Part shown: positions 18,049 through 52,751 of the stretch, one piece after another
Layout of the letters: every line of letters begins with the position of its first letter
Numbering within the stretch: the first letter of the stretch is position 1
From: a virus
Lineage: Duplodnaviria; Heunggongvirae; Uroviricota; Caudoviricetes
Virus record (IMG/VR): IMGVR_UViG_3300027808_000017
Location: 1-64,000 of that record
DNA length: 64,000 nucleotides
Direction: 5' to 3' (one strand)
Program-made: the position numbers and the translations under genes
The notes under the pieces: model-generated
Database searches by the model: none
Told to the model about the DNA's origin: nothing
What the model saw: only the letters and a program-made list of their open reading frames with translations

Positions 18049-18059
18049 TAAGTAATAAT

Positions 18060-19283: not shown

Positions 19284-19470
19284 TGGTAATGTTGAAAAAG
19301 CATTACGTAAGTTTAAGAAAAAAATTGCAGAGCAAGGTCTACTGCAAGAAGTCCGCGACCGTCAAGAGTTCGTTAAACCCACAGTCAAACGCAAAATTGC
19401 CAAGAGCAAAGCAAAGAGTAGATGGAAGAAACATCTACGAGACCAAGAATTACCCAAAAAACTATATTAA
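19249..19470 (+). CDS. rpsU: 30S ribosomal protein S21
   Basis: VLVTDGNVEKALRKFKKKIAEQGLLQEVRDRQEFVKPTVKRK aligns with bacterial S21 ([43 protein letters not shown]); overlaps clpX 3' end. Confidence 0.75.
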   Translation: MTKKGRQVLVTDGNVEKALRKFKKKIAEQGLLQEVRDRQEFVKPTVKRKIAKSKAKSRWKKHLRDQELPKKLY

Positions 19471-19573
19471 CCTAAATAGTTGTATATATTGCACAATCAT
19501 GTAAAATATATACTGTAGTAGATGCCTAACGGGTCTATTACAACACAATCTTGCTTTAACAAAGGAGAAAATT

Positions 19574-21490: not shown

Positions 21491-21554
21491 ACTTTAGATC
21501 GGGTGCCGCATTGCGGGCCCGACAATTATTCTTGCTTTATTAAGGAGATATAAA

Positions 21555-22001
21555 ATGACAAGAGAATTAACATTAAGAGCGTTAGACATACCAACCATTC
21601 ATAGATTTGGAATAGGATTTGATTCTATGATAGATGAACTGATGCGTATGAATGCAACGCAAACTAACACCAACTACCCACCCTATAATATAGTAAAAGA
21701 ATCTGAGGATCGATTTGCTATTGAAGTAGCGGTTGCTGGGTTTAGTGAAGGTGAGGTTTCTATTGAAATAGAGAATCGTGTACTTACAATTGCCGGTAAC
21801 AAAATACATGACTTAGATAATCCTAAAGAATATCTACATCATGGGATAAGTAACCGTAATTTTATTCGTGAATTTTCTTTAGCAGAACATGTTGAAGTTA
21901 AAAGTGCTATAAATGAAAACGGGATCTTATCTATTGGACTAGAACGAATTATTCCAGAAGAGCATAAGCCCAAGAAGATTGTAATAAATTACAATAAATA
22001 A
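21555..22001 (+). CDS. small heat-shock protein (Hsp20/IbpA family)
   Basis: alpha-crystallin-like core (AVAGFSEGEVSIEIENRVLTIAG), 148 aa. Confidence 0.75.
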   Translation: MTRELTLRALDIPTIHRFGIGFDSMIDELMRMNATQTNTNYPPYNIVKESEDRFAIEVAVAGFSEGEVSIEIENRVLTIAGNKIHDLDNPKEYLHHGISNRNFIREFSLAEHVEVKSAINENGILSIGLERIIPEEHKPKKIVINYNK

Positions 22002-22024
22002 TATAATAGCATATCGTAAATACA

Positions 22025-22052
22025 AGTGTGCGGGAAACTGCACACTTTTTTG
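22025..22052 (+). terminator. rho-independent terminator
   Basis: AGTGTGC-GGGAAACT-GCACACT followed by T6. Confidence 0.6.
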
Positions 22053-22063
22053 AAAGAGAAAAA

Positions 22064-22369
22064 ATGGCACAAACAGATACGAACCTAAGCGTAAGACCTA
22101 TAGTTGATGTAAAGGAACCACCGTTGTTCAGAGTAATTTATATGAATGATGATTTAACCAGTATGGAATTTGTTATACGGAGTTTGATTGATCATTTTCA
22201 TTACACAGATGAAACCGCAGTGAATATCACAACTGGAATTCATGATTCCGGAAGTGCAGTAGTTGCAGTGTTACCATATGAAATTGCAGAACAAAAGGGT
22301 ATTGAAGTAACTATGGAAGCCAGAACTGAGGGCTATCCGTTACAAGTTAAAATTGAGGCCGAGACTTAA
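22064..22369 (+). CDS. clpS: ATP-dependent Clp protease adaptor ClpS
   Basis: PLFRVIYMNDDLTSMEFVIRSLIDHF...VAVLPYEIAEQKGIEVTMEARTEGYPLQ aligns with ClpS ([20 protein letters not shown]...); start moved to ATG 22064 after terminator. Confidence 0.65.
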   Translation: MAQTDTNLSVRPIVDVKEPPLFRVIYMNDDLTSMEFVIRSLIDHFHYTDETAVNITTGIHDSGSAVVAVLPYEIAEQKGIEVTMEARTEGYPLQVKIEAET

Positions 22370-23054
22370 ATTCTATTCGTTTAGGGTAATAAGGATTTCG
22401 GCCCGCACACGGGTTATTAAGGTAGTTGATATTGTCTAAGACAGTATCAACTATTTTTCCATGTGTGCCAAATACCCAGTGAGATACTTTGTTTTCAGTA
22501 TCATATTCTAATGCATCAGTTAGTGGTCCGGCATCATGCATATCAGGTTCTTCACCATAATATAATTTTTTAGTTGGTACAGAACTAGAAACTACCATAA
22601 TATGTTCTACTTCTGAATGGACCTGTAATCTGTGTATAGTACTGCATAGATATGAAACATCCTCATATCCAGCAACAATTAATTCTATTTCAGCCATTTT
22701 ATTTCTAGGCTTATAATTTCCATACCATCCATTAGTGGCTACGATTGCTATCTCATTTAGCACCACTACATTATCATGTAAGAATATTACATTCTTTAAT
22801 GACGCACAAATTTCTCCAATTTCTTTGATACGTTTTTCTCTAATAATTACAGTAGAGTGTTCTAACGCACCATCAATAAAAAAGACACCCTGATAGCAAT
22901 TACTCAGGGTGTCTAATACTGTTTGTAGCATTGCTAAATCATTACTGACATTACCCGCAACAATACAATATAAACTTGTAGGTTTATCTTCCCAGATAAA
23001 GGTGTCATCTACTGATAAATTCAAATCACTAATTACATCAAATCCAAGTATCAT
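22347..23054 (-). CDS. putative calcineurin-like metallophosphoesterase
   Basis: N-terminal D-x-SDLNL, later GN/GTHGK motifs; 235 aa. Confidence 0.4.
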   Translation of the reverse strand: MILGFDVISDLNLSVDDTFIWEDKPTSLYCIVAGNVSNDLAMLQTVLDTLSNCYQGVFFIDGALEHSTVIIREKRIKEIGEICASLKNVIFLHDNVVVLNEIAIVATNGWYGNYKPRNKMAEIELIVAGYEDVSYLCSTIHRLQVHSEVEHIMVVSSSVPTKKLYYGEEPDMHDAGPLTDALEYDTENKVSHWVFGTHGKIVDTVLDNINYLNNPCAGRNPYYPKRIEFKSRPQF

Positions 23055-23115
23055 GTTTTCAACAGTTAATATGGAAATAGGACTACTGCCCTATTTCGCA
23101 ATAAAGCAGTATATA

Positions 23116-23403
23116 TTACGCTTTTGGTTTAGCTTTAGTTGTTTTAGAGGCTACTTTTTTAACGGCAGCAACTGCATCTTTAACATCAACTTTGCCGTCT
23201 TCATTGACATCTAATGCTTTTTTAACACGGGTGGTAGTCTTTTTAGCAACTTCCTTAACAACCGCTACTTCAACTTTGACTTCAGCAACGGCTTCTTTGA
23301 CAACTTCTTCAACCTTAGCAATTGCTTCTGGTTCAGATTTAGCCAAATAATTCCATAATGAGTAAACAGCAATCACTGCAACGACAACGATAATAATTTC
23401 CAT
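23116..23403 (-). CDS. membrane-anchored Ala/Val/Lys-rich repeat protein
   Basis: N-terminal TM MEIIIVVVAVIAVY; internal repeats VKEAVAEVKVEV / VKDAVAAVKKVASKTTKAKPKA. Confidence 0.5.
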   Translation of the reverse strand: MEIIIVVVAVIAVYSLWNYLAKSEPEAIAKVEEVVKEAVAEVKVEVAVVKEVAKKTTTRVKKALDVNEDGKVDVKDAVAAVKKVASKTTKAKPKA

Positions 23404-23434
23404 AGTAAAATCTCCTTGAACTAATATTTATGAC

Positions 23435-23944
23435 TTGAGGTTCCAAAGCAGATTTTTTCATAAATACTGTATGTTCAAGTCCTTGTCATTGCGAGAGTTG
23501 ATGGATCTACCCTTGCCCAAAATCACCGCGCAAAAAAGACTACTATTTAGACCGGATTTAGAGGATGTGGAACATGTCTATGATTTGTTAAATGAGCATG
23601 TTTTTGATAATATTTTAGTTAAGCCTAATATTAAATTGGGCACATGCCGAGACTATTGGGGAATGTGTTATGGGGAGGACAATCCCTATAATAGCGGAAC
23701 TTATTGCAGAATCAAACTAAGTGACAAATGGTATTCTGCTCAATGGATGGTGACAATGTTATCGCATGAAATGAGTCATCAGTATCAATGGGATGTTTAC
23801 AGTCATGGTCGTAAGACTAGAGTTATGAGCCATGGACCTAGTTTCTACAGATATCAATTAAAGATGCGGGAACACAATATTTCATTGAAAACATACTATT
23901 CTACTAGACAATGGTTTAATAAACAAGATTTGTTTAAAGCGTGA
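23435..23944 (+). CDS. SprT-like zinc metallopeptidase
   Basis: HEMSHQYQW...H motif in SprT-like context; 169 aa (true start may be Met 23471). Confidence 0.55.
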   Translation: MRFQSRFFHKYCMFKSLSLRELMDLPLPKITAQKRLLFRPDLEDVEHVYDLLNEHVFDNILVKPNIKLGTCRDYWGMCYGEDNPYNSGTYCRIKLSDKWYSAQWMVTMLSHEMSHQYQWDVYSHGRKTRVMSHGPSFYRYQLKMREHNISLKTYYSTRQWFNKQDLFKA

Positions 23945-23963
23945 AAGAGATAAATACATTACT

Positions 23964-25457
23964 ATGAGAGCAATTGAATTTTTAAAAGAATCCCAAGGTG
24001 GTATATTCCGCCGTGCCCAAGAGGTTGACCAAGGTGCGGAAATCAAGTTTAAAAACGCGGAAACAAACCAAGAAATTAAACTACTGTCAGCAGAAGTATT
24101 TCCTCAAACTGGACAATACCAAACATATGAAGAATTAGACCAAGCAGTTACTGATTTTTGTACTATGTTTGAAGTTCCACCGGAGAACGTTCAGTATGCA
24201 GGTAAACCAGATAAATCACGTGCCGCAATGGTAAGTATTTGGACGGATTTAACATCAGGTGAACCAATGGCGTTTGTTAAACTTGCTACAAAACGTAGTG
24301 AAGGTGCTTCACCTATTATGCAGAGTAATGCTGATTTTAAGAATGCGTTTGGTTATGGAGATGTAGGTAAGACAGCACAACGTCAAACATTACAATTAAA
24401 ACCAAAAGACGTATTAGCATTTGATGAATGGTTAAATCCACAAGGTGTTATACGCAGTGTTACTAGCAGATTGAAAACTAGAAGTGACCTAGACGAAAAC
24501 CTGAAGCAAGGATTAGTACAGCTTGTAACTAATGTTGCCCAAGGTGTCAGTGAGCCTGTGCCGGGTATGGCACAATATTTAACAACGTTAGAAGTTGATT
24601 ACGGTGAGGTACCTGCCCCTATTGCGTTAATTACAGGTAATTTTGTAGGAGGAGACTATCTGCAAGCCGAAAAAGGATTATTAGGTCCATTAGGTTTAAA
24701 ATGGAGCGATTTATCAAAAATATTGTATCCCAAGGCCGGGGGCGAAAAGATTTATGATAGTTACATTTATATTGATGAAGAAACCAAACTTAAAGTAAGT
24801 TCAAAAGATAAAAAAGGCGGCGCAGCCGCTAGTATTACTGGATTAATTGATGAAATTAACAAAACACCAGAAAAATTTCAAAGTGTATTACTTAATAAAA
24901 AATTCGGCTCTTTACTTAATATATGTAGGACAATTGCTAGCGCACCAAATACATATCAAGGAAGTGCAAAAAAGAGTAGCAAAAGTATAAATGGCCCTTT
25001 AATTTTAGCTGTAAATACTTTTAAATTTATTGACGACAATGATGCTAGAACAATTGTAGGGTTGATGAACTCCCCAAATAATAAAATGATGCCAGAACAA
25101 GCATACAAAAAAAATGTCATTGGTCCTAATTTATGGAAGATAATTTCAGTTAAAGGTGCCAATTATAAGGACCCGGGATATAATTTAGGTTATCATGTAA
25201 TGGCATGTGTTGCAAAAAATATTGCTAATATATGTAATAGCGATCCAAATACTGATAAATTTTTTAGGTCTATTTTGGAAAGATCCAACATGGTACAAGT
25301 TAAAACTACAGTTAAAAAATCCGGTGACGGGGCGGCATTTACTAATTTTGTTGTAATGTATCCTCCGGTCTTCGATGGCAAAATGACTATGCATGCGGAT
25401 AACAATTATATGGCGACACGAAAGCCAATCGCACCATTAAGTTTCAAAATGCCTTAA
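23964..25457 (+). CDS. hypothetical protein (497 aa)
   Basis: N-terminus MRAIEFLKES resembles N-terminus of 863-aa protein at 46123. Confidence 0.5.
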   Translation: MRAIEFLKESQGGIFRRAQEVDQGAEIKFKNAETNQEIKLLSAEVFPQTGQYQTYEELDQAVTDFCTMFEVPPENVQYAGKPDKSRAAMVSIWTDLTSGEPMAFVKLATKRSEGASPIMQSNADFKNAFGYGDVGKTAQRQTLQLKPKDVLAFDEWLNPQGVIRSVTSRLKTRSDLDENLKQGLVQLVTNVAQGVSEPVPGMAQYLTTLEVDYGEVPAPIALITGNFVGGDYLQAEKGLLGPLGLKWSDLSKILYPKAGGEKIYDSYIYIDEETKLKVSSKDKKGGAAASITGLIDEINKTPEKFQSVLLNKKFGSLLNICRTIASAPNTYQGSAKKSSKSINGPLILAVNTFKFIDDNDARTIVGLMNSPNNKMMPEQAYKKNVIGPNLWKIISVKGANYKDPGYNLGYHVMACVAKNIANICNSDPNTDKFFRSILERSNMVQVKTTVKKSGDGAAFTNFVVMYPPVFDGKMTMHADNNYMATRKPIAPLSFKMP

Positions 25458-25519
25458 CCAAAACTCTTTTAATTTGTTTTACAACGTGTTATACTTGTAA
25501 AACATTTTAAAGGAAGTTT

Positions 25520-26107
25520 ATGAGTCTAGTCCCAATCGTCATTGAACAAACAAGCAAAGGTGAGCGTAGTTATGATATCTACAGCCGTCTATTGCGTGAC
25601 CGTGTAATTTTACTTGAGGGTGAAGTACATGACCAAATGGCAAATCTTATTGTTGCCCAATTGCTATTCCTAGAATCAGAGGGTGACAAGGATATTTCAA
25701 TGTATATCAATAGTCCCGGCGGTAGTGTGACAGCAGGTATGGCAATCTATGATGCTATGCAATTCGTTAAGCCTGATATTCATACAATTGTAATGGGTCA
25801 GGCATGTTCTATGGGTAGTCTACTCGCACAATCAGGTGCACCCGGTAAACGTTTTATGTTGCCCAATGCAAGGCACATGATTCATCAACCTTCAGGTGGT
25901 GCAAGAGGTCAAGCAACTGATATGCTGATTCAGGTAAATGAAATACTTGAAATGAAAAAGAACCTAACAGGAATCTACACTAAGCACAATTCAAAAGGTA
26001 AAACTTTTGATGTACTCCAAGCTGATATGGAACGTGATAATTTTATGAGTGCTCAACAAGCATTTGACTATGGACTAGTAGACGAAATAGTTACAAAGCG
26101 AGGTTAA
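25520..26107 (+). CDS. clpP: ATP-dependent Clp protease proteolytic subunit ClpP
   Basis: [27 protein letters not shown] (Ser), HQP...GQATD (His/Asp) catalytic triad context; 195 aa. Confidence 0.9.
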
Positions 26108-26109
26108 TT

Positions 26110-26850
26110 ATGGAAGAACTAATTGACCTTTCATATGCTCATCATATCCAAGATACCGTTGACATAGAAACTATATGTTCAAATGCAATTGAAGTTAATT
26201 CAATGGAACCCTATTGTTGGCCATTAGATATACCAATAGATAAAGAATTATTATTAGAAAGTTGGAACAAGCTATTTGTTTCGCTTGGTTATACTTATGA
26301 ATCTATGACCGCATTAATGCGTGAGTATTTTGTAGAAAAATATAAACAATTAGGTCACCCCAAAGATCCAATTGCATGGGATATGAATCTAACACATTAT
26401 ACCGAACTAACCGGTGATGATCGATGGAATAAGTTCAGAGGTACCGTCGAATGGATTCTAGAAGATGGCGGAGATCCTAAAAGAGCCACTGAGATGTTAT
26501 CAGAAATAAAAAATACATACTTAGAACATGTCATCAACAGTTTATTTGAGCATCATGCTAAGAATTTTAATAGAGAATTTAAAGGGCAACTTAATGTAAC
26601 TTGGGTTGGTCCTGGTCAACGATATAATCTTCACAACGATAATAATATCTATTTAAGATATCATATTCCGATCATAACAGATCCAAAAGTCTTTTGGATA
26701 TTTCAGGATGTAAATAATGTTGAACAATATTATAAAATGCACATGCCGGTTGGTGCTGTATGGATGTTAAATCCTGTACAAGTAGTACATACCGTAGTAA
26801 ACCAATGGGACCATGCAAGGGCACATTTATTATTGTCCGAGTTTAGATAA
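26110..26850 (+). CDS. putative aspartyl/asparaginyl beta-hydroxylase-like (cupin) protein
   Basis: NLHNDNN...RYHIPIITD resembles H-x-D...RxH(L/I)P(L/I) core of Asp beta-hydroxylases. Confidence 0.35.
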   Translation: MEELIDLSYAHHIQDTVDIETICSNAIEVNSMEPYCWPLDIPIDKELLLESWNKLFVSLGYTYESMTALMREYFVEKYKQLGHPKDPIAWDMNLTHYTELTGDDRWNKFRGTVEWILEDGGDPKRATEMLSEIKNTYLEHVINSLFEHHAKNFNREFKGQLNVTWVGPGQRYNLHNDNNIYLRYHIPIITDPKVFWIFQDVNNVEQYYKMHMPVGAVWMLNPVQVVHTVVNQWDHARAHLLLSEFR

Positions 26851-43664: not shown

Positions 43665-43880
43665 ATGGCAAAAGAAGAGGGTATTAAAATGGACGGCAAG
43701 GTAGTAGATGTACTACCTAATGCCGTTTTTAAAGTAGTAATGGAAGCTGGTCCTATCATAACAGGATACATCAGCGGCCGCATGCGTAAGCATGATATTA
43801 AAATTTTATTGGGTGATACTGTTGAAGTTGAATTCAGCCCATATGATTTGACTAAAGGTCGTATAACCCGTAGACGGTAA
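43665..43880 (+). CDS. infA: translation initiation factor IF-1
   Basis: 71 aa S1-like OB fold: [63 protein letters not shown] aligns end-to-end with bacterial IF-1. Confidence 0.85.
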
Positions 43881-43923: not shown

Positions 43924-44808
43924 ATGCAAAAAACTTACCGCAGTATTTTCATTAGCGATGTACACTTAGGTACAAAAGATTGTCAAGCAGGAAAATTAAA
44001 CAATTTCCTCAAGCACAATTCGTGCGATACCCTATATCTTGTGGGTGATATAATTGATGCATGGAAAATACAACAAAACAAATGGCGTTGGAAACAATCA
44101 CACACCAACGTAGTACGCAGAGTATTAGGTCATGCCAAGCGTGGCACTAAAGTAATATTCATTGCAGGCAATCACGATGAATTCTTAAGACCAATGATAC
44201 CCTATGGTTTCAGTTTTGGCTTAATAGAAATACACAATCAAATAGAGCATATAGGTGCAGACGGTAAACATTATCTTGTCACTCACGGAGACATGTTTGA
44301 TGGCCTTACAAGACTAGCACCCTGGTTATCATTCTTAGGAGACAAAGCATATGATTTCATTCTTAGCCTCAATAGCAAACTTGCTTGGATTCGTCGCCGT
44401 ATGGGTTTTGGGTACTTTAGCCTTAGCCGTTTTCTTAAGCACAGGGTCAAAAAAGCAGTAGATTTTATTTTTAAGTTTGAAGAAAACTTAGCTAAGTATT
44501 GCAAGAAGCGTGGATTTGATGGAGTGATATGCGGTCACATACATCACGCAGAAATAAAAGATATAGATGGTGTAACTTATATGAATGACGGTGATTGGGT
44601 AGAGAGTTGTACTGCGCTAGTAGAACATCATGATGGTCGTTGGGAAATAATAACTTGGACACAGGAGAGTGACAATGTGGATAATGATATTGATAGCAGT
44701 ACACGTGAACAACCCACAGGATCAACCAGGAAGAATAGAACTGACATTCAACGACCAAAAGAGTTGCGAACAAGCGTTGTTGACAATGAAGTACGAATTA
44801 AAATTTAA
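43924..44808 (+). CDS. LpxH-family metallophosphoesterase
   Basis: ISDVHLG, GDIIDAW, AGNHDEF, THGD, CGHIHH, DGDW - same motif order as LpxH; acidic C-terminal extension. Confidence 0.55.
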   Translation: MQKTYRSIFISDVHLGTKDCQAGKLNNFLKHNSCDTLYLVGDIIDAWKIQQNKWRWKQSHTNVVRRVLGHAKRGTKVIFIAGNHDEFLRPMIPYGFSFGLIEIHNQIEHIGADGKHYLVTHGDMFDGLTRLAPWLSFLGDKAYDFILSLNSKLAWIRRRMGFGYFSLSRFLKHRVKKAVDFIFKFEENLAKYCKKRGFDGVICGHIHHAEIKDIDGVTYMNDGDWVESCTALVEHHDGRWEIITWTQESDNVDNDIDSSTREQPTGSTRKNRTDIQRPKELRTSVVDNEVRIKI

Positions 44809-44829
44809 GAGTTTTAAGGTAGAAGGAAA

Positions 44830-45549
44830 ATGTCAGAAACAATACTAAGTGAAAAAATTACAATCGTTGTGCCATGTAAGAATGAAGAAAATTACATCGC
44901 ACATCTACTGATGCATCTACGCAATCAACTGATAGGTAGTACCAAAATCATTATTGCAGATTGTTCTACTGACAATACCCGTGAAGTTATTCAAGCAACA
45001 AAGGGTAGATTAAATGTAGAAATCATTGACGGTGGACCTGTTAGCATTGCAAAGAATCGTGGTGCTAAATTAGTAACTACTCCCTACATTCTATTCATTG
45101 ACGCTGATGTTCGTTTCTTTAAAGAGACAGTTATCCGTGATTCAGTCAATGAGATGGAGTCAAAGAACTTAGATTTAATCGGACTAAACATCAAATGCTA
45201 TGACCATGACAAACGTACTAGTATTGGATTTGCTGTTTTCAACGGAATCAACCGTATATTAAAACACTTTAGTCCATTTGCTGTGGGTGCTTTCATGCTA
45301 ACACGCAGAGATAGATTTGAAGAATTCGGGGGATTCCCTGAAAAGATGTCAACATCCGAAGACTATTTCCTATCCAGAAAGTACAGCCCCAAAAAGTTTA
45401 GAATTATTAAACATCATTTTGGTCAAGATAGTCGCAGATTTAAGAAGATGGGTTATTTTGGAATGGCTACATATCTTGTTAAGAACTTTGTTAACCGAAA
45501 CAATAAGAAATACTGGGATAGTTTAGACTCATCTAAGTATTGGAGCTAA
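44830..45549 (+). CDS. family 2 glycosyltransferase
   Basis: ITIVVPCKNEENYI N-terminus, DAD (DxD) motif, 239 aa. Confidence 0.65.
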   Translation: MSETILSEKITIVVPCKNEENYIAHLLMHLRNQLIGSTKIIIADCSTDNTREVIQATKGRLNVEIIDGGPVSIAKNRGAKLVTTPYILFIDADVRFFKETVIRDSVNEMESKNLDLIGLNIKCYDHDKRTSIGFAVFNGINRILKHFSPFAVGAFMLTRRDRFEEFGGFPEKMSTSEDYFLSRKYSPKKFRIIKHHFGQDSRRFKKMGYFGMATYLVKNFVNRNNKKYWDSLDSSKYWS

Positions 45550-45574
45550 TGTAAGTTGCGATAAATACTCTACT

Positions 45575-46126
45575 ATGTACGATATTGTAGAGAAAATCAG
45601 TGAATCCAGAACAAAAAAATTAGAGATAGTCAAGCTATCCTATGACCTTTCCGACCTCAATCCAGTATTAAGCAAAAAGACAATGGATTATCACTATGGG
45701 GATTTAGCCCATGGATATGCATCCCGATACAACAAGGGTGAGGGTGACAAAGATTTCAATTATGCGGGTGCTTTCCTGCACAACATTTATTTTCCGCAGT
45801 TTCGCAAAATACAAGAAGATAACACTCCTAACGGTCCTGTACTAGGAATCATTAAGCGTAAGTACGATTGGTGGAGAGATTTTAAAGAACAATTCAAACA
45901 AGAAGCCATGAAGATACAGGGTAGTGGTTGGATTTATATGAGTTATACAGGTGAGATAAAGACTATTGTTAACCACGAGGTTCGTGAAGATATTCTTATT
46001 CTAGTTGACTGGTGGGAACATGCTTGGGCCTTAGACTATCAAGCAGATAAAAAAGGTTACTTAGAAAACATTTGGAAGATAATGAACTGGAGTCACATCA
46101 ATACCCGCTGGGGGAAGAATTTATGA
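45575..46126 (+). CDS. Fe/Mn superoxide dismutase homolog
   Basis: SKKTMDYHYGDLAHGY ~ QTMEIHHTKHHQTY; GSGWIYM ~ GSGWAWL; DWWEHAWALDYQ...IWKIMNW ~ DVWEHAYYLKFQ...FWNVVNW. Confidence 0.6.
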   Translation: MYDIVEKISESRTKKLEIVKLSYDLSDLNPVLSKKTMDYHYGDLAHGYASRYNKGEGDKDFNYAGAFLHNIYFPQFRKIQEDNTPNGPVLGIIKRKYDWWRDFKEQFKQEAMKIQGSGWIYMSYTGEIKTIVNHEVREDILILVDWWEHAWALDYQADKKGYLENIWKIMNWSHINTRWGKNL

Positions 46127-48663
46127 GAGCCACTGAATTTATAACTGAATCTAAAACTGTAGAGTACGAAGGCTTAACACTAAAAATAAGTAAACAAGGT
46201 CATGAGTTAATAGTCAATGCCCTTGATGATTGGGGTAATAAAGTATTAGGCCATGTAAGATTCAACATAGGTGATGGTAAAGAATTAGACCCACAAGACC
46301 TTAAAGTTGATGATAAGTATCAAGGTCAAGGCATCGCTAAAGTCATGTATGATTATGTTAAAAGTCTTGGCTATACGATTGCTAGAAGTTATGACCAAAC
46401 TGATGCCGGTGCAGGCTTTTGGAACAAGCATCGCGGAGAAGATGTTCGTATTTGGGAAGCCCGAGCCGGTGGAAAACTGAATAGAAAATACGATTCGGCC
46501 CGTCGAGAAGTTAAAAGCATTTTGAACAGCCCATACATAAACTTAAAAGAGTGGGGTCTGAGCATGACTATGTTGCCCAAACTAGGTATTAATCCTGGCA
46601 AGGGCATCAGCGAGGATACTCCCAAGGGCATTTACTTTTATCCATTAGCGTATGTCAATGATTGGGTCAATGGTTCTGAGGAGTTACCATGGGGTAATGA
46701 TTTCCCATACATACAAGTGTTTCAATACGATACTAGTCATCGAATGACACCGGACACAAAAGTTGATCCTGAGAGATTAAAGGCAACACTGCGTCAATAT
46801 TGTCCTGAAGAAGTTATCAATCAATTAATAGAAGAAGGCACATACAACAATGATCCTTATTGGTTTATTTATAATTGCCTAATTCAAGTAAGCAAGAATG
46901 ATGAATCTACTATTATTCGTTGGAATAAAATATTAAGAGACTTGGGCTTTACTAGTGTTTATGACTATGGCAAGGGCTGGATAGCACACAACGAACCAGA
47001 GCAAGGTATTATCTTAGATCCAAGAATCATCAAGCAGGTTCAAACTTTTAACAACTACACACGTAAGCAAGGTGTAGCGGAGGGCAAGGTCAAACTCTAC
47101 ACAGATCCTGGCTATTTTGGGGCAGAAGTAGATGACACAGGGTTTGATGGCCTACCAGTAGTCAACATACCCACTAATCAACTTGTGGGATTTGAACCAG
47201 ATTCAAAGATGAATCAACCAAAAAGCCGAGCCAATGTTGAAAAAATAGTAGCAGGATTGAAACAAGGTGACAAGTTGCCACCATTGTTGGTTCGCAAATA
47301 TAAAAATGGATATCAAGTATTAGATGGTCATCATAGATTCTGGGCCTATAAATTGTCGGGTACAAAATCTATTCCATCACGAATTGTACCTGATAAAGAT
47401 ATAGAAGAAATCAGTAAACAAGGTGTGGTAGAAAGTGTCAATGACTATCTATGGCACGGGTCTAGGTATAGAAATGAGGTACTAGTACCGCGTCAGGCTA
47501 ATGATACCGGTGGTAAAGAAGAAAGTAATAAAAATGCTATATATGCTACTCCTAGTGCAAAAGTTGCTATAGCAATGGGGCTAACTACTCCTGGATCAGA
47601 TACCGGAATGTTTCCAAACGATCCACAAATGGTACTATTCAAAGGCGGTATTAGAAAAGGTGAAATGGTTTACTTGCACAAGGTACCTAAAGATTTATTC
47701 ATAAAACACAACAGCAGAGAATGGTATAGTAAACCCGATGTAAAAGAAATTACACCTATAGAAGTAGTAACAGTTCCTGTAGACAAATGGTTAAGTTTGA
47801 TTAGAACTGCTACCCCTAAAGATTTAGAATTACAGAAAAAAAACATGAAGAAGCAAGGTGTGGCGGAAGGCTTAGATGATAATAGAGTTAGTTTCAAGGT
47901 ACAAAAAGGTAAAAACAAATTTGCAACTACTTTAAGTGTTGGTGGCGACCCAGTAGGAGTATACCAATATGATGCTGATACAGGTCGTAGCATAGCCGAG
48001 ATTTATCCAGAATTCAAAGGCAAAGGATTAGGTAAATTATTGGTTTTACATGCTATCTATACCGCGGCTAATTTGGGATTAGATTTCCAAGAAGATGAAT
48101 CAAGAACCTCAGAGTATGATAATGTATTAGATAGTTTGAGTAGTAACGGTTATATTGTAGATGACGATGGATATTGGTATGTAACCGGTCAAGGTGAACA
48201 ATATCTACAACAATCATTAAAACAAGGTGTGGCGGAAGGTGATGACAAATTAAAAGATCCAATAGCAAATGCAATATTAGATTTCTATCAACATGCCGGA
48301 CATATTAGCAAAGACCCAATTGATAACTATGTTGGTACTGCAAAAGAATTGCTAAGTCAGGTCAGTGATCCTACAGTCAAATCAAAGATACTAGATATTT
48401 TCAAACAAGCAAAACAAAGCCCATATGTTCAAGGTGGAGTTGTTACAACTATTGGTGCATTACTTGCCGGTGGAGTATTAAGTTCAGCACAGAAAATGGG
48501 ATTGAGTCCAGCGCAAACTAACTTAGTGTTACAAGCGATACTAAATACAGTTATACCTACTGTGGTGTCCAGGATCAATGGAAAGAGTTGGAGTGACACA
48601 GTTAAGTACACACTAGCAAGTGCAGGCATTGGTACTGGCATTGCTGGTATGATGGAGGAATAA
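46123..48663 (+). CDS. large multidomain protein: GNAT-like / ParB-like nuclease domain / second GNAT-like, with KQGVAEG linker repeats and hydrophobic C-terminus
   Basis: GNAT motif A-like YQGQGIAKVMYDYV and KGKGLGKLLVLHAIY; ParB/Srx motif GYQVLDGHHRFWAYKL; start at MRATEFITES (GGGGGAAG RBS). Confidence 0.5.
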   Translation: MRATEFITESKTVEYEGLTLKISKQGHELIVNALDDWGNKVLGHVRFNIGDGKELDPQDLKVDDKYQGQGIAKVMYDYVKSLGYTIARSYDQTDAGAGFWNKHRGEDVRIWEARAGGKLNRKYDSARREVKSILNSPYINLKEWGLSMTMLPKLGINPGKGISEDTPKGIYFYPLAYVNDWVNGSEELPWGNDFPYIQVFQYDTSHRMTPDTKVDPERLKATLRQYCPEEVINQLIEEGTYNNDPYWFIYNCLIQVSKNDESTIIRWNKILRDLGFTSVYDYGKGWIAHNEPEQGIILDPRIIKQVQTFNNYTRKQGVAEGKVKLYTDPGYFGAEVDDTGFDGLPVVNIPTNQLVGFEPDSKMNQPKSRANVEKIVAGLKQGDKLPPLLVRKYKNGYQVLDGHHRFWAYKLSGTKSIPSRIVPDKDIEEISKQGVVESVNDYLWHGSRYRNEVLVPRQANDTGGKEESNKNAIYATPSAKVAIAMGLTTPGSDTGMFPNDPQMVLFKGGIRKGEMVYLHKVPKDLFIKHNSREWYSKPDVKEITPIEVVTVPVDKWLSLIRTATPKDLELQKKNMKKQGVAEGLDDNRVSFKVQKGKNKFATTLSVGGDPVGVYQYDADTGRSIAEIYPEFKGKGLGKLLVLHAIYTAANLGLDFQEDESRTSEYDNVLDSLSSNGYIVDDDGYWYVTGQGEQYLQQSLKQGVAEGDDKLKDPIANAILDFYQHAGHISKDPIDNYVGTAKELLSQVSDPTVKSKILDIFKQAKQSPYVQGGVVTTIGALLAGGVLSSAQKMGLSPAQTNLVLQAILNTVIPTVVSRINGKSWSDTVKYTLASAGIGTGIAGMMEE
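47065..48240 (+). repeat. three copies of a ~20-nt intragenic direct repeat encoding KQGVAEG
   Basis: AAGCAAGGTGTAGCGGAGGGC at 47065-47085, AAGCAAGGTGTGGCGGAAGG at 47851-47870, AACAAGGTGTGGCGGAAGGT at 48221-48240. Confidence 0.7.
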
Positions 48664-48986
48664 TGGCATATTCAGAAAAAGTAATTGACCAAATAGTAAA
48701 AGAACACAATGTTGTGTTGTTTATGAAGGGGACCGCACAATTTCCCATGTGTGGATTTTCGGGCAAAGCTATACAACTGCTGAATGAATGCGATTCAGAC
48801 TTTGATGTATTCACTGTAAATGTGCTTGATGATAATGACATTCGACAAAGTATCAAAGAATACAGTAATTGGCCGACCATTCCTCAATTGTATGTCAATG
48901 GTGAGTTCATCGGCGGATCTGACATCTTGATCGAAATGCACGAATCAGGTGAATTACAACAATTATTAAAAAACAAGGAGTCATAA
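48663..48986 (+). CDS. monothiol glutaredoxin (Grx4/GrxD type)
   Basis: FMKGTAQFPMCGFSGKA: CGFS active site; 107 aa. Confidence 0.8.
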   Translation: MAYSEKVIDQIVKEHNVVLFMKGTAQFPMCGFSGKAIQLLNECDSDFDVFTVNVLDDNDIRQSIKEYSNWPTIPQLYVNGEFIGGSDILIEMHESGELQQLLKNKES

Positions 48987-48989
48987 TTT

Positions 48990-49018
48990 ATGGCATATTC
49001 AGAAAAAGTAATTGACCA
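48990..49018 (+). repeat. 29-bp exact direct repeat of the first 29 nt of the grx CDS (copy at 48663-48691)
   Basis: ATGGCATATTCAGAAAAAGTAATTGACCA present at both positions; second copy opens a 16-codon remnant ORF. Confidence 0.85.
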
Positions 49019-49078
49019 CTACGCAGTTATGATAGAATAATAATGCACACAACCGGGTGCACCTAGATAAATACTTGT

Positions 49079-49675
49079 ATGAAAAACAAATATGGTCTAA
49101 GTAAGGTGTGCTTTTTTTGTGAATCTAGTTTTATAACTAAACCTAGATTTATAGATTACTGTTCACAAAAATGTAAAAATCCTCTTAACAGGGGAGAATA
49201 TGATCCCTGGAATAAAGGTATCAAACTTACAGATGAACAAAAAGCAAAACAAAATACAGACGGGCTCAAAAAAGGATGGGGATGGAACAAGGGCGGAACT
49301 AATGAAGCGGCACGCCAGCGTATGCTAGTCAATAATCCAAATAAAGATGGAAGGTTAAACAATCTTAGACCAAAAAATCCAATTACAGAACCCCTTAAAA
49401 TATATCGTAGTAAGGTTAGGTACCATACATATAGAACTCTTAAAGAAATGAGAGCAAACGGTGAGTGGGTTCCAAAAACTGGTAAGTATAAAGACAGTTG
49501 GCAAATTGACCATATTATTCCACACAAACAAGGTTTTGAATTAAGAATAGATCCTTCAGTACTTGGTGGAAAAAAGAATATACAATTTATTAAAGGCGAA
49601 GAAAACAGAAAAAAATGGGATAGTTATCAACCCATTGAAATAGTAGAGTCTATTACAGGAGGTAATTATGTATAG
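49079..49675 (+). CDS. putative HNH endonuclease
   Basis: N-terminal Cys cluster CFFC...C..C; WQIDHIIPHKQG...N...N consistent with HNH core. Confidence 0.45.
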   Translation: MKNKYGLSKVCFFCESSFITKPRFIDYCSQKCKNPLNRGEYDPWNKGIKLTDEQKAKQNTDGLKKGWGWNKGGTNEAARQRMLVNNPNKDGRLNNLRPKNPITEPLKIYRSKVRYHTYRTLKEMRANGEWVPKTGKYKDSWQIDHIIPHKQGFELRIDPSVLGGKKNIQFIKGEENRKKWDSYQPIEIVESITGGNYV

Positions 49676-50051
49676 TGCAAAAGTGTTAGATCATTATGAG
49701 AACCCTAGGAACGCAGGAAGTTTTTCCAAAGATGAAGAAAATATAGGTACGGGATTAGTAGGAGCCCCGGCGTGTGGTGACCTAATGAAACTACAAATAA
49801 GAGTAGAGAATGGCATTATTACAGATGCACGTTTTAAAACGTATGGATGTGGATCGGCAATTGCAAGTAGTTCTCTAGTCACAGAGTGGGTTAAAGGCAA
49901 GACATTAGACGAGGCAGCAACTATTAAAAATTCAGAAATTGCTGAGGAACTTGCATTACCCCCAGTTAAGATACATTGTAGTATCTTAGCAGAAGATGCT
50001 ATCAAAGCCGCAGTAGAAGATTATAAAAAGAAACATGATATCATTATCTGA
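49668..50051 (+). CDS. iscU: Fe-S cluster assembly scaffold IscU
   Basis: YENPRNAGSF, GAPACGD, YGCGSAIASS, LPPVKIHCS (three conserved Cys + LPPVK). Confidence 0.85.
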   Translation: MYSAKVLDHYENPRNAGSFSKDEENIGTGLVGAPACGDLMKLQIRVENGIITDARFKTYGCGSAIASSSLVTEWVKGKTLDEAATIKNSEIAEELALPPVKIHCSILAEDAIKAAVEDYKKKHDIII

Positions 50052-50358
50052 CAAAGCAAAAACAAAAATAGAAACTCTATTAAAGAGTTCTCAACATGTT
50101 GGGATTCGTATAGGGGTGAAAACAACTGGTTGTAGTGGATTAGCATATGTATTAGAATATGTAAAAGAATATGTTAGTGATCCTACTACTATCAATTACG
50201 CTCAACCTAACTTTTGTGTATTAGTAGATAAAAAGCATAATGTATATTTAGAAGGTCTTACGATGGATTATGTCCGTAATGGACTAAATGAGGGGTTTGA
50301 GTTTAGCAACCCGAATGAACGTGACCGCTGTGGATGCGGAGAAAGTTTTAGAGTATGA
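50035..50358 (+). CDS. A-type Fe-S carrier (IscA/HesB family)
   Basis: GCSGLAY ... CGCGESF C-terminal signature. Confidence 0.7.
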
Positions 50359-50678
50359 TAACAATTACAGAATCAGCAAGTATCAAAATAGCAGATATTA
50401 TTGCGGAAGAAAACAACCCTGACTTAAAGTTACGTATGTTTGTCCAGGGCGGGGGATGCTCAGGATTCAGCTATGGATTTACGTTAGAGGAGATAAAAAA
50501 TGAAGATGACTTTGAATTTGAAGCTGGTGCCACAAGTGTCCTGGTCGATGCAATGTCGGCTCAATATCTTCAAGGGGCTGAGGTTGATTACGTAGAAGAC
50601 TTAATGGGGGCAGAATTCAAGATAAAGAACCCCACAGCTACTAGTACTTGCGGATGCGGGAGTTCCTTTTCGGTTTAA
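50355..50678 (+). CDS. A-type Fe-S carrier (IscA/ErpA family)
   Basis: [21 protein letters not shown] ... CGCGSSFSV. Confidence 0.8.
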
Positions 50679-50702: not shown

Positions 50703-52751
50703 ATGGCAATTTTAGGACAAGCAAACATATTAGTAGGAGTAGAAAATCAAGCTACTGGTAGTGATAGCATCTACACCGCATTCAATAAAGTAGTTGACAA
50801 CTTTGACACGTTATTCACCTATTCCAGCCCGTTCAATACATTTAATAGTGGTAACGGGATCACAGCAACCCCATTTAGTAGCAACGGATCAGTATTCTTT
50901 GAAAACACAGGAGTAACTAGTTTAATTGCCGGTACTGGAATCACTATATCATCTCAAACAGGAGAAATTGTTATTTCTTCTGCCGGTGGGGAGGGAATGT
51001 CAGGTGTCACTAGTGTTGGAATATCAAGTATTTCGTTAGATGTAAGTGATTCTCCTATCGTCAGTTCAGGATTAATTAGAGTAGAATTACCTACAATTGA
51101 AACAGGCCTTGGATTTGAACCGGGTGACTATATTACACCCGCACTTACCGTAGATGCATACGGTCGTATTACTAGTATTTCTAATACCTCTACGTCAGGT
51201 ACAGTAACCAGCATAGCACTAGATACAGTTGGTGATGGCATTGGCATAACCGGAGGTCCGATAACAGATAATGGAACGATTGTTATTACTAACACAGGCG
51301 TTACCAGAATAAATGCAGGAAATGGAATTGAATTAAGTGGTAGTACCGGAAACGTGACTATCAATTCTACACTTAGAGGTGTTGGTGTTGTTAGTAGAGT
51401 AGATGTTGATAGTACTACACTGACAGTACTGAACAGTCCAATAACATCATCAGGAACAATTACAGTTGATATTCCAGATGACATCTCGTTAGCTGGAAAT
51501 CTTATTGCAAATACTATCACTAGCAACTCCACAGCAACAATTACAGGTAATATTACTGTGGGTAATATTACCTCTACTGGTACAATTACTTCATTAGGTG
51601 GAAATATTTTATTAGGAGCTAATCTAGTAATTACTACCTTAAGTGGCACGGGCGGACCATCTAATATTCTTACTATTGGGTTTACTACTCAACCAAGAAT
51701 ACCGTTTGTACCAGGTGCTATCATTACCATTACCGGAACAACACCAACTACTTACAATGGATCTTACACAGTAATCACAGGTACTACAAGTGCAGTAACT
51801 GTGACTAGTTCAGTATCAACAGCAGTAGTTACAAAAGGTAGAATCATTGGTGGAGGTGATATAATTAGTAATGGATTTGTTACGGTATCTGCTAACATTA
51901 CTAGTGCAAACGTGATAGCTACTACAGCATTGCAGGCACCCAAAGTTAATATTACAGGTAATGTATCATCCTCTGCATGGGGTACAAGTGGAATAGGTTT
52001 AGTTGTGTCAGCAAATACATATACTGATGCCTCTACTGCAGGTTCAGGCACAGTCGCAAGTGCTTCAATCAACGTGATAAATATACCAACTATTACAGCA
52101 AGTAATCTTGCAGTAACCGTCACTAAAGCATCGTCATTATATATTGCAGGTGCACCTGCTGCCGGTGCTAATATTACATTAACCAATTCATATGCATTGC
52201 AAGTGGCTGCTGGGCCTGTACAGATTGATACATCTACTGCCGCAACATCAGCCACGACCGGCGCACTAAGAGTTGCCGGTGGTGTAGGTATCAGTGGTGC
52301 TTTATATGCAGGAGGCGGAATAGCTAGTGCAAACACTACATCCGGTTCTCTAGTGGTTACCGGTGGACTAGGTGTTAGTGGTGATACATATCACGGTGGT
52401 AGTGTCCTTATTTCAGGAACAGGCGGGCTAGGGTACGGAACTGGATCTGGTGGAACAGTTACGCAAGCTACAAGCCGAACAACCGGTGTAACTATTAATA
52501 AAACAAACGGTGCTATTGTTCTTATTTCCGGAGCAGGTTCTACCGGGTGGCAATCATTCACTGTGACTAATAGTACAGTGGTAGCTACTGATGTAGTTCA
52601 TGTTTCTCAAAAATCAGGTACGGATCTTTATCAAATATTTGTTACTGCTATAGCAGCCGGTAGCTTTCGAATAACATATGCAACTACTGCAGGCTCAACT
52701 ACTGAGCAACCGGTATTTAATTTCGCTGTCGTAAAAGCAGTAACAGCATAA
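50703..52751 (+). CDS. tail-fibre-like structural protein (Thr/Gly/Ser/Ile-rich repeats)
   Basis: 682 aa; repeated NTGVT(S/R)(L/I)xAGxGIxxSxxTGxVxI units. Confidence 0.5.
   Translation: MAILGQANILVGVENQATGSDSIYTAFNKVVDNFDTLFTYSSPFNTFNSGNGITATPFSSNGSVFFENTGVTSLIAGTGITISSQTGEIVISSAGGEGMSGVTSVGISSISLDVSDSPIVSSGLIRVELPTIETGLGFEPGDYITPALTVDAYGRITSISNTSTSGTVTSIALDTVGDGIGITGGPITDNGTIVITNTGVTRINAGNGIELSGSTGNVTINSTLRGVGVVSRVDVDSTTLTVLNSPITSSGTITVDIPDDISLAGNLIANTITSNSTATITGNITVGNITSTGTITSLGGNILLGANLVITTLSGTGGPSNILTIGFTTQPRIPFVPGAIITITGTTPTTYNGSYTVITGTTSAVTVTSSVSTAVVTKGRIIGGGDIISNGFVTVSANITSANVIATTALQAPKVNITGNVSSSAWGTSGIGLVVSANTYTDASTAGSGTVASASINVINIPTITASNLAVTVTKASSLYIAGAPAAGANITLTNSYALQVAAGPVQIDTSTAATSATTGALRVAGGVGISGALYAGGGIASANTTSGSLVVTGGLGVSGDTYHGGSVLISGTGGLGYGTGSGGTVTQATSRTTGVTINKTNGAIVLISGAGSTGWQSFTVTNSTVVATDVVHVSQKSGTDLYQIFVTAIAAGSFRITYATTAGSTTEQPVFNFAVVKAVTA

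Follow-up and report, generated by a model that had tools for sequence, protein, structure and literature searches.

One gene in a 64,000-nucleotide stretch of phage DNA (Caudoviricetes; positions 1 to 64,000 of IMG/VR record IMGVR_UViG_3300027808_000017; hereafter, the window) encodes a protein of 846 amino acids (aa) in which a short N-terminal leader is followed by six modules. Comparison with related loci indicates that these modules are demonstrably exchanged at a nucleotide-invariant, in-frame junction, probably by general homologous recombination between phages. We favor the interpretation, to which we assign a probability of about 0.55, that the product is a capsid-loaded, protease-cleavable, recombination-shuffled effector polyprotein of a jumbo phage. 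An initial annotation had described a modular protein with a leader, GNAT-like and ParB-like segments, and repeat linkers; our analysis upholds this outline and extends it.

The reading frame opens with either TTG 46072, which gives 863 aa, or ATG 46123, which gives 846 aa. The initial annotation had listed an 863-aa protein at 46123-48663: the open reading frame (ORF) is real, and 863 aa is the length of its TTG-start version, which automatic gene callers also picked (database protein P0001). ATG 46123 is the likely translation start, because homologues start at MRAxEF and because this codon overlaps the stop of the upstream gene for Fe/Mn superoxide dismutase (SOD). An identical copy of the gene is present in two independent assemblies (L001 and L283), and the ORF is therefore not an assembly artefact. 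The module borders listed in Table 1 were defined by mapping the BLAST segments of relatives onto the polyprotein as the query.

Table 1. Layout of the polyprotein gene and position of the second leader gene in the window
Feature	Positions	Strand	Remarks
Polyprotein ORF	46072 (TTG) / 46123 (ATG)..48663	+	Uninterrupted reading frame
Leader MRATEFITE (aa 1-9)	46123..46149	+	Proposed capsid-targeting propeptide, putative cut after Glu9
Module 1, small GNAT acetyltransferase (aa 10-112)	46150..46458	+	Motif A YQGQGIAK; ends ...DVRIWE then AR
Module 2, ART-fold, ART-PolyVal / AcrIF11 / RES type (aa 113-314)	46459..47064	+	Assigned from predicted structure
Junction 1, KQGVAEG (AAGCAAGGTGTAGCGGAGGGC)	47065..47085	+	Direct-repeat family D1
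Module 3, ParB/sulfiredoxin-type N-terminal domain (aa 322-431)	47086..47415	+	Motif LDGHHRFWAYKL
Junction 2, degenerate KQGVVES	47416..47436	+	Fourth repeat copy
Module 4, ART of H-Y-E class (aa 439-576)	47437..47850	+	Candidate triad His445, Tyr474, Glu533
Junction 3, KQGVAEG	47851..47871	+	Direct repeat
Module 5, second small GNAT-like (aa 584-699)	47872..48219	+	Motif KGKGLGK, weak
Junction 4, KQGVAEG	48220..48240	+	Direct repeat
Module 6, C-terminal, Gly/Ala-rich hydrophobic stretches (aa 707-846), then stop	48241..48663	+	No Pfam match
497-aa leader gene (MRAIEFLKES...)	23964..25457	+	Conserved non-mosaic family between SprT-like and ClpP genes

Among 5.8 billion proteins searched, the polyprotein has 787 relatives. 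Nearly all of them cover just 13 to 56% of the query, at 41 to 96% identity, and combine the matching parts with other domains, including GH19 lysozyme with LysM, cytidylyltransferase, deaminase, Pol-beta nucleotidyltransferase (NTase), SET, sigma-70 region 4, and deoxynucleotidase. The ends of the BLAST segments cluster at aa 112/113 (43 ends at this module 1/2 border), 311-324, 430-441, 577-586, and 700-707, delimiting six modules.

To assign the modules, we combined profile searches with comparison of predicted structures. In a Pfam scan of the whole protein, Acetyltransf_1 (32.4 bits) and Acetyltransf_7 (32.6 bits) score above their cut-offs, over two stretches. Module 1 keeps its match when aa 1-112 are scanned alone (Acetyltransf_1, 22.9 bits versus a cut-off of 20.7) and contains QGQGIA, in agreement with the first of the two acetyltransferase-like segments annotated before. 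Module 5 is the second of the stretches; its KGKGLG motif, on which the other segment had been based, is present, but the module scanned alone falls below the cut-off (Acetyltransf_1, E = 0.0045, 17.7 bits). Module 3 matches PHROG ParB-like families down to 3.5e-9 and carries a DGxHR-type motif, LDGHHR; its score with Pfam ParB_N (PF02195), 24 to 25.5 bits, is just below the cut-off of 26.3, and PF02195 is precomputed on P0001. The earlier designation as a ParB-like nuclease thus stands for the fold family, whereas a nuclease or NTPase activity would follow from family membership only.

Modules 2 and 4 have no Pfam match, profile searches of PDB sequences gave nothing useful for them, and their identities came from structure comparison only. 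On the predicted structures, both are ADP-ribosyltransferase (ART) folds. The top Foldseek matches of module 2 are "ART-PolyVal-like domain" proteins, and this ART-PolyVal/AcrIF11-like fold also occurs in a solved structure of a phage ejection protein. Of the H-Y-D configuration of ART-PolyVal (PF18760-type), module 2 shows invariant Tyr residues in GIYFYP and an invariant Asp169; its first strand (WxxSMT) is without a conserved His, and its catalytic competence is uncertain. In module 4, H445 varies hardly at all and Y474 and E533 not at all, and the three residues are located on or next to predicted strands (strands 1, 2, and 5); the model places it among the H-Y-E-class ART folds with a conserved triad, as a predicted enzyme. 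Structure prediction and domain search, the check that the initial annotation had proposed, therefore recovered the GNAT and ParB similarities and added two ART folds, overlooked until now, which lie between the segments previously seen as joined (aa 113-314 and 439-576). Because there are two ART-fold modules, ADP-ribosylation of protein or nucleic acid is at least as likely as DNA modification.

These assignments bear on the interpretation offered with the initial annotation, namely, that two acetyltransferases flank what is mainly a ParB-type nuclease or an anti-defence effector that modifies DNA. The ParB_N and GNAT matches speak for it. The ParB domain, however, is one of six modules and is freely exchanged, its Pfam score does not quite reach the cut-off, nuclease residues are not evidenced beyond the family motif, and both ART folds are left out; we therefore regard this interpretation as improbable. 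The epithet "novel" does not hold either, since the protein falls in the already described class of polyvalent proteins (PMC5512222).

Module 6 has no Pfam match. The glycine-rich, hydrophobic C terminus reported before proves moderately Gly-rich (12.6% versus 9.2% overall) and hydrophobic, with a borderline score for a membrane helix (maximum 19-aa Kyte-Doolittle score of 1.52). The module is spanned by 46 BLAST segments (40 distinct) among 120 listed homologues, and its tail (...YTLASAGIGTGIAG...), where visible, is at or near their C-terminal ends. By this comparison, the polyprotein family has a small set of C-terminal modules that replace one another, of which module 6 is one. Such alternatives recur (P0013, P0023, P0053, and others; L029 2556-4265; L014 9359-11956). 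The commonest is a basic tail, ...ENFADGKNPGRKG...RMAHWLANMKAGRAKKK, which matches Pfam DUF6321; others end ...DYLEEK or ...KNAKAFGWLTSRAGIPP..., and all behave as position-fixed C-terminal cassettes. The family also has a giant member of 2547 aa (L012 5351-12994), with amidoligase and deaminase domains plus ParB/ART-type modules. Pfam and PHROG scans of the polyprotein found no peptidase family.

Four of the five internal module borders are KQGVAEG/KQGVVES junctions. The three KQGVAEG linkers described earlier are encoded by a 21-nucleotide (nt) direct repeat at 47065, 47851, and 48220, copies of which differ at synonymous sites only; within the window, the repeat is confined to the polyprotein gene. 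At the fifth border (aa 112), homologues read DVRVWE-QGVAE-AR where the window has DVRIWE-AR, indicating that this border, too, is the junction, from which the 15 nt encoding QGVAE have been lost. No other 5-mer is as common as QGVAE in the 120 listed relatives: 78 of them contain it, in up to six copies each. In the DNA, the core (A/G)AG CAA GGT GTG GCG GAA G is common to 57 different contexts, with essentially information-free flanks; it is always in frame and on the coding strand, with 0 minus-strand matches. The core CAAGGTGTGGCGGAA keeps codons that are otherwise rare, GTG in 22/26 cases (background, 0.15) and GCG in 23/26 (0.07), alongside GGT in 26/26 (0.48) and AAG in 12/14 (0.30). Since this codon choice departs from background usage, the junction is conserved as nucleotides and not only as a peptide. 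The linkers are thus a genuine peptide repeat, as annotated, and more than that: they are conserved at the nucleotide level and mark recombination breakpoints.

The exact junction 17-mer is found in at least 120 IMG/VR stretches (GC about 0.41) on contigs of up to 524 kb; 73 of these stretches encode at least two linker peptides, and leader ORFs are present in 41. In GTDB bacterial genomes, the first 120 matches listed are single, high-GC (median, 0.61), and without nearby leader ORFs, and we therefore take the matches listed there as chance. A Chi-like role for the junction is unlikely, given that matches are exclusively in frame on the coding strand and, in the window, are found only in the polyprotein gene. 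When the 57 contexts were read by eye, no conserved start codon was apparent downstream of the Shine-Dalgarno-like junction. A 36-nt direct repeat of 72% identity links 46184-46219 (ISKQGHELIVNA, inside the first GNAT) with 47408-47443 (ISKQGVVESVND, at the degenerate junction) and may be chance or the relic of an old junction.

The role of the junction in module exchange is best seen in four loci (L002, L006, L013, and L027) that keep the gene order of the window at about 85% nucleotide identity. The shared order comprises metallophosphatase (4/4), glycosyltransferase (3/4), SOD, a variable gene, Fe-S genes (3/4), and a fibre gene. The polyprotein gene is the only variable one, and all four loci differ from the window in its module content; L027 retains just the leader plus GNAT (module 1 alone), in a gene for 114 aa. 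DNA homology with L002 ends at 47426, inside the degenerate junction 2; homology with L006 ends at 46461, the module 1/2 border, and picks up again at 48218, where junction 4 starts; homology with L013 resumes at 48252. The breaks are thus at or within a few bases of junctions in 4/5 cases, the fifth (46394) being about 65 nt inside module 1.

Module neighbours tell the same story of exchange. We split all linker-containing ORFs at the junction and clustered the pieces at 80% coverage, after a first single-linkage clustering had chained everything together. Each side of the module-4-type ART (19 distinct copies) shows 14 different neighbour types, and each side of the ParB module (13 distinct linker-bounded copies) shows 10. 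There are also stand-alone genes composed of leader, junction, and one module, such as MRANEFIVEGVAEG...YLWHGS in L031 and MRATEFIVEGVAEGK...ParB in P0055.

The leader itself has the consensus MRAxEF[IL]xE followed by a small residue; the polyprotein has ITE then S, and the family has [ILT]-x-E then S/G/A. Two copies are present in the window, on the polyprotein (MRATEFITES) and on a 497-aa protein (MRAIEFLKES). Their likeness, pointed out in the initial annotation, is genuine and far exceeds what chance would give: across the window and 42 related IMG/VR loci (366,000 ORF residues), 52 ORF starts have MR[A]xEF[IL]xE, whereas roughly 0.1 would be expected by a rough residue-frequency estimate, which is not tool output. 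All leader-bearing ORF starts share the strand of the polyprotein, and the genes form consecutive runs, of seven in L012 (15155-19388, after the 2547-aa gene) and of six in L029 and L014. Beyond the leader, the proteins that carry it are not related to one another (mean column identity, 11%), and 25 of them share only M1, R2, and E9. The domains that follow include NUDIX, M48 peptidase, LysM, PG_binding_1, sigma-70 region 4, and various domains of unknown function; the GH19 lysozyme/LysM and peptidoglycan-binding modules among them fit an action at entry.

The 497-aa protein, with no Pfam, PHROG, or cultured-phage match, belongs to a family that is conserved over its full length at 30 to 79% identity. 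At least 82 of its 86 distinct N termini keep MR[AFV]x[ED][FIL][LIK]xES, even where overall identity is 30 to 40%. Leader codons 5 to 9 are at background usage, and selection therefore acts on the leader peptide; codons 2 and 3 (AGA GCA) are nucleotide-biased, with AGA in 32/34. No conserved promoter or ribosome-binding site was found upstream of leader genes, and the window has no excess of the T4 late promoter TATAAATA (4 matches versus 8 expected).

The most conserved leader residue is Phe6, and this residue figures in one alternative, in which the leader would be a recognition or degradation tag for the phage Clp machinery (ClpX, ClpP, and ClpS; ClpA in relatives) that times destruction, e.g., with Phe6 as an N-degron after cleavage. 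The window does encode ClpX, ClpS, and a cellular-type ClpP, a relative encodes a ClpA-like protein (L012 3-2249), and the 497-aa leader protein is in conserved synteny between SprT-like and ClpP. To our knowledge, however, the leader does not fit N-terminal ClpX recognition motifs, and we know of no cleavage that exposes Phe6. Moreover, 20 kb separate the Clp genes from the polyprotein gene, and a Clp tag would leave both the junction motif and the T4 likeness described below unexplained. We consider this alternative highly improbable.

The T4 likeness concerns the capsid-targeting sequence (CTS), MKTYQEFIAE (PMC8442874), in which targeting depends on residues 4 and 7 and processing on residues 8 and 10 (PMC9026906). 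The leader aligns with it as M, basic, small, x, E-F-I-x-E with one gap, an alignment too short for statistics. The most conserved leader residues (Phe6, Ile/Leu7, and Glu9) are the counterparts of Phe7, Ile8, and Glu10 of the T4 CTS. Replacing the P1 residue of the T4 CTS by Asp prevents processing while targeting persists. The T4 head protease gp21 and its giant-phage relatives cleave C-terminal to Glu after a three-residue motif, and Alt, the injected ADP-ribosyltransferase of T4, is cleaved at ITE-6 and LTE-619 (PMC5694885). The polyprotein leader ends I-T-E, the same tripeptide as at ITE-6 of Alt.

Similar sites recur along the chain. The 846 aa contain seven hydrophobic-x-E-[GAS] sites, and six of them are the leader end and the five junctions (9, 112, 320, 437, 582, and 705). 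Upstream of module-2-type domains, all 33 distinct junctions have Glu at P1 and V/L/I/M/F at P3, while P2 varies; 16 of the 33 are without the canonical linker, and in one, the leader's own Glu is fused straight to the module (MRAQEFLSE then ARSNPEQN). The initial annotation had suggested that the two N termini carry a common signal for targeting or processing, like injected or internal-head proteins of large phages; this suggestion is well supported comparatively, if not proven.

Querying all related loci of our set with T4 gp21 and gp23 revealed head genes on contigs that carry leader or linker genes. L014 encodes a Peptidase_S77 (667-1302; 87 bits), a coiled-coil scaffold resembling gp22, and a gp23-like capsid protein that shares 35% identity with that of T4. 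Six leader genes come after this head module; the sixth encodes a polyvalent protein of 865 aa that combines an NTase, an ART (82% identity to module 4), KQGVAED, and a DUF6321 tail. A protease and a capsid protein are encoded in L177 and a capsid protein in L216, and in both, the gene after the capsid gene holds several GVAE sites. The N termini (propeptides) of the clade's capsid proteins keep YL-x-E just before the first conserved block; T4 gp23 is cleaved after FLTE, in what we take to be the corresponding region. In L177 (3241-3987) and L216 (reverse complement 1446-2165), the gp23-like capsid gene is separated from the head-region gene that follows it by an inserted ORF of 240 to 248 aa that resembles, in sequence, a GIY-YIG-type homing endonuclease; L014 carries a different insert, of 497 aa, at the same place.

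Under the favored interpretation, the leader would work like the T4 CTS and take the polyprotein into the prohead core, where a gp21-family serine protease would cut after Glu9 and after the Glu of each junction inside the capsid, freeing about six separate enzymes of 100 to 210 residues. The freed modules would be ejected with the DNA and would ADP-ribosylate or acetylate host proteins or nucleic acids, as T4 Alt does, with a ParB-type NTPase or nuclease activity alongside; the outcome would be host takeover or a block of defence. The 17 to 21 nt of the junction, together with the leader codons, would provide in-frame microhomology at which co-infecting relatives recombine, swapping, deleting, and adding modules and thereby producing a rapidly changing effector repertoire.

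Several observations weigh against this interpretation. Packaging, cleavage, and enzyme activity are all inferred. The likeness of the nine-residue leader to the T4 CTS has no meaningful statistic behind it, and some family members are without the leader, starting directly with a cytidylyltransferase fold. The hydrophobic-x-E before module 2 could be the module's own conserved N terminus. Module 2 has no obvious strand-1 histidine and may be inactive, and module 5 is GNAT-like only weakly. There are no recognisable head genes in the window, and the S77 protease is known from the related contigs L014 and L177, not from the window's own genome. Among 79 head-module loci with related proteases, just 5 have leader genes within 10 kb, and the QGVAE linker is found in 0/79; the arrangement in L014 is thus exceptional, and leader genes are usually elsewhere, as in the window. 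The neighbours of the polyprotein gene (SOD, glutaredoxin, Fe-S assembly, metallophosphatase, and glycosyltransferase) are untypical of virion genes. Finally, a protease site needs no nucleotide-level conservation of the junction, for which a purely DNA or RNA explanation is possible. The protease hypothesis does not account for this conservation, which is explained by recombination or by an RNA-level effect (rare-codon or Shine-Dalgarno-like pausing); the two roles of the junction are compatible but independent.

In the main alternative, the protein would be a cytoplasmic, non-packaged multi-enzyme, active in early takeover or in metabolism, with the junctions as flexible linkers kept for recombination or ribosome pausing and the conserved start (ATG AGA GCA ...) serving mainly translation initiation. 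The position of the gene inside an auxiliary metabolic operon, without its own upstream promoter or structural neighbours, would fit such a protein, as would the rare GTG and GCG codons of the junction, the nucleotide bias of leader codons 2 and 3, and the scarcity of leader genes near head modules. We nevertheless consider a cytoplasmic role, in either of these respects, rather unlikely. Leader positions 5 to 9 are kept as amino acids even in a family that is 30 to 40% identical elsewhere, every junction, canonical or not, has hydrophobic-x-Glu, and the leader resembles the T4 CTS and Alt sites. In addition, stand-alone modules bear the same leader, six leader genes directly follow the protease, scaffold, and capsid genes in L014, and the lysozyme and peptidoglycan-binding modules among leader proteins fit a role at entry. 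Capsid loading thus remains our favored interpretation.

By its GNAT, ART, ParB, ART, GNAT architecture, the sequence belongs to the polyvalent proteins of Iyer, Burroughs, Anand, de Souza, and Aravind (2017; PMC5512222). In that class, ARTs are the commonest protein-modifying domain, a RimI-like GNAT is typically beside an ART, ParB domains are present, and entry into the host with the DNA has been proposed (PMC5512222). The polyprotein likewise is phage-encoded, joins at least two disparate activities, includes a PolyVal-like ART fold, a GNAT beside an ART, and ParB, and shows extensive mosaicism; Pol-beta NTase, lysozyme/LysM, deaminase, and sigma-70 region 4 occur in its relatives. It differs in having no zincin MPTase or assemblin-like peptidase in the chain, a common though not obligatory theme of the class, and instead has a Glu-ending motif at every border, suited to a head protease acting in trans. 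Other differences are its small modules (100 to 210 aa), bounded by one nucleotide-conserved in-frame junction, and an N-terminal leader common to many single-domain proteins. A word search of PMC5512222 gives 0 occurrences of "linker" (the search covered this word, not a shared N-terminal leader). Thus, while the polyvalent effector class is known, the combination of a T4-CTS-like leader, a nucleotide-invariant junction, and Glu-ending borders appears to be an undescribed organisation.

The leader resembles the CTS of T4 IPI, IPII, and IPIII in being a putative propeptide of roughly 10 residues on otherwise unrelated proteins, with a hydrophobic-x-Glu ending and a hypervariable repertoire; the two sequences are alike (MRAxEFIxE versus MKTYQEFIAE), and related contigs encode a gp21-family protease and a gp23-like capsid protein. 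Unlike the T4 internal proteins, which are single, small, basic, and cut once, it heads multi-module polyproteins with internal sites, and there are dozens of leader genes per lineage, with enzymatic domains; homology between leader and CTS is not demonstrable. With T4 Alt, the polyprotein shares an ART that is putatively capsid-delivered, I-T-E at the leader end, and internal Glu sites, but Alt is a single enzyme of the R-S-E clade, whereas the polyprotein has H-Y-E and PolyVal-like ART folds and four other modules. Many inner-body or ejection proteins of phiKZ, 201phi2-1, and SPN3US are also cut C-terminal to Glu after a three-residue motif, with multi-site propeptides and ejected cargo. Their motifs prefer S/A/G at P3, whereas the polyprotein has V/I/L, as does T4, and no shared universal leader or repeated inter-domain junction has been described for them. 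In its short conserved border sequences and in-frame combinatorial exchange in conflict proteins, the polyprotein is reminiscent of C-terminal swapping in polymorphic toxin, Rhs, and contact-dependent inhibition systems, of the R64 shufflon, and of integron cassettes. Unlike in these cassette systems, exchange affects multiple internal positions and not just the C-terminal tip, all repeats are direct and inside one frame, and no dedicated recombinase or immunity genes were seen.

More broadly, and more tentatively, we propose that an abundant, uncultured clade of freshwater T4-related jumbo phages may run a plug-and-play effector delivery system, in which one 9-residue label would send single-domain proteins and polyproteins alike to the prohead and one junction of 17 to 21 nt would be both the cut site (GVAE, then G) and the point at which cassettes are shuffled between genes and genomes. 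The cassettes may be ARTs, GNATs, ParB, NTases, lysozymes, deaminases, and sigma-factor fragments. If so, both the loading and the evolution of injected weapons would be standardised, a single label addressing the cargo and a single joint releasing and reshuffling it, and the label would supply a rule for predicting which uncharacterised proteins of huge uncultured phages get ejected into the host. The T4 CTS/Alt paradigm, so far from coliphages, would extend to environmental jumbo phages, and the domains of polyvalent proteins would be separable without a built-in peptidase. The system would be a phage counterpart of the viral polyprotein combined with cassette exchange and would parallel, in nature, the T4 CTS vectors engineered for protein delivery; its leader and cleavable linker, which a T4-type protease should recognise, would offer natural design principles for phage protein delivery. 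The modules themselves would form a catalogue of compact ADP-ribosyltransferase, acetyltransferase, and ParB units, probably aimed at host transcription or defence.

The 42 related IMG/VR loci are on contigs of up to 359 kb, and the polyprotein is phage-encoded. A DNA polymerase on a leader/linker contig shares 46 to 49% identity with the polymerases of Sinorhizobium phage Phosso and Agrobacterium phage Atu_ph07; the next closest, at about 42%, are from several ~350-kb jumbo phages of Vibrio, Erwinia, Serratia, and Yersinia. Atu_ph07 has been placed in gp23-type group 2.2 (Iyer et al. 2021). Related contigs of 345 to 360 kb fit a jumbo-phage lineage, and the best explanation is that the source of the window is an uncultured freshwater jumbo phage with T4-type head assembly. 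A tblastn search of 50,697 phage genomes with the whole polyprotein and the 497-aa protein gave no match and thus no cultured relative with these modules, and one 24.6-kb piece of the Atu_ph07 genome has no leader-like starts.

The 497-aa leader gene is part of a proteostasis block (17985-26850) that encodes ClpX, DnaK/Hsp70 (864 bits), Hsp20, ClpS, a SprT-like zincin, the leader protein, a cellular-type ClpP, and an Asp/Asn-hydroxylase-like protein; the order of the block, plus ribosomal protein S21, is kept on a 276-kb lake contig (L285). The ClpP of the window is 67% identical to that of Atu_ph07 and about 60% identical to ClpP-like sequences of several unannotated phage-collection records. 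We rejected this ClpP as the maturation protease: although its gene is beside that of the 497-aa protein, it is of the cellular type and inside a ClpX-DnaK-Hsp20-ClpS block.

No tRNAs were found in the window. The polyprotein gene is surrounded by a redox/Fe-S set (43924-50678), with metallophosphatase, GT2 glycosyltransferase, and the SOD upstream and a monothiol-type glutaredoxin, a 198-aa uncharacterised protein, IscU, and two IscA-like proteins downstream. This set is preceded by a homologue of translation initiation factor IF-1 (43665-43880; Pfam eIF-1a, 73 bits). It is followed, at 50703-52751, by a gene for a 682-aa fibre-like protein with short Gly/Thr/Ser/Ile repeats; the C-terminal part of this protein matches phrog_18251, and its N-terminal part is strongly divergent between syntenic relatives (49 to 62% identity).

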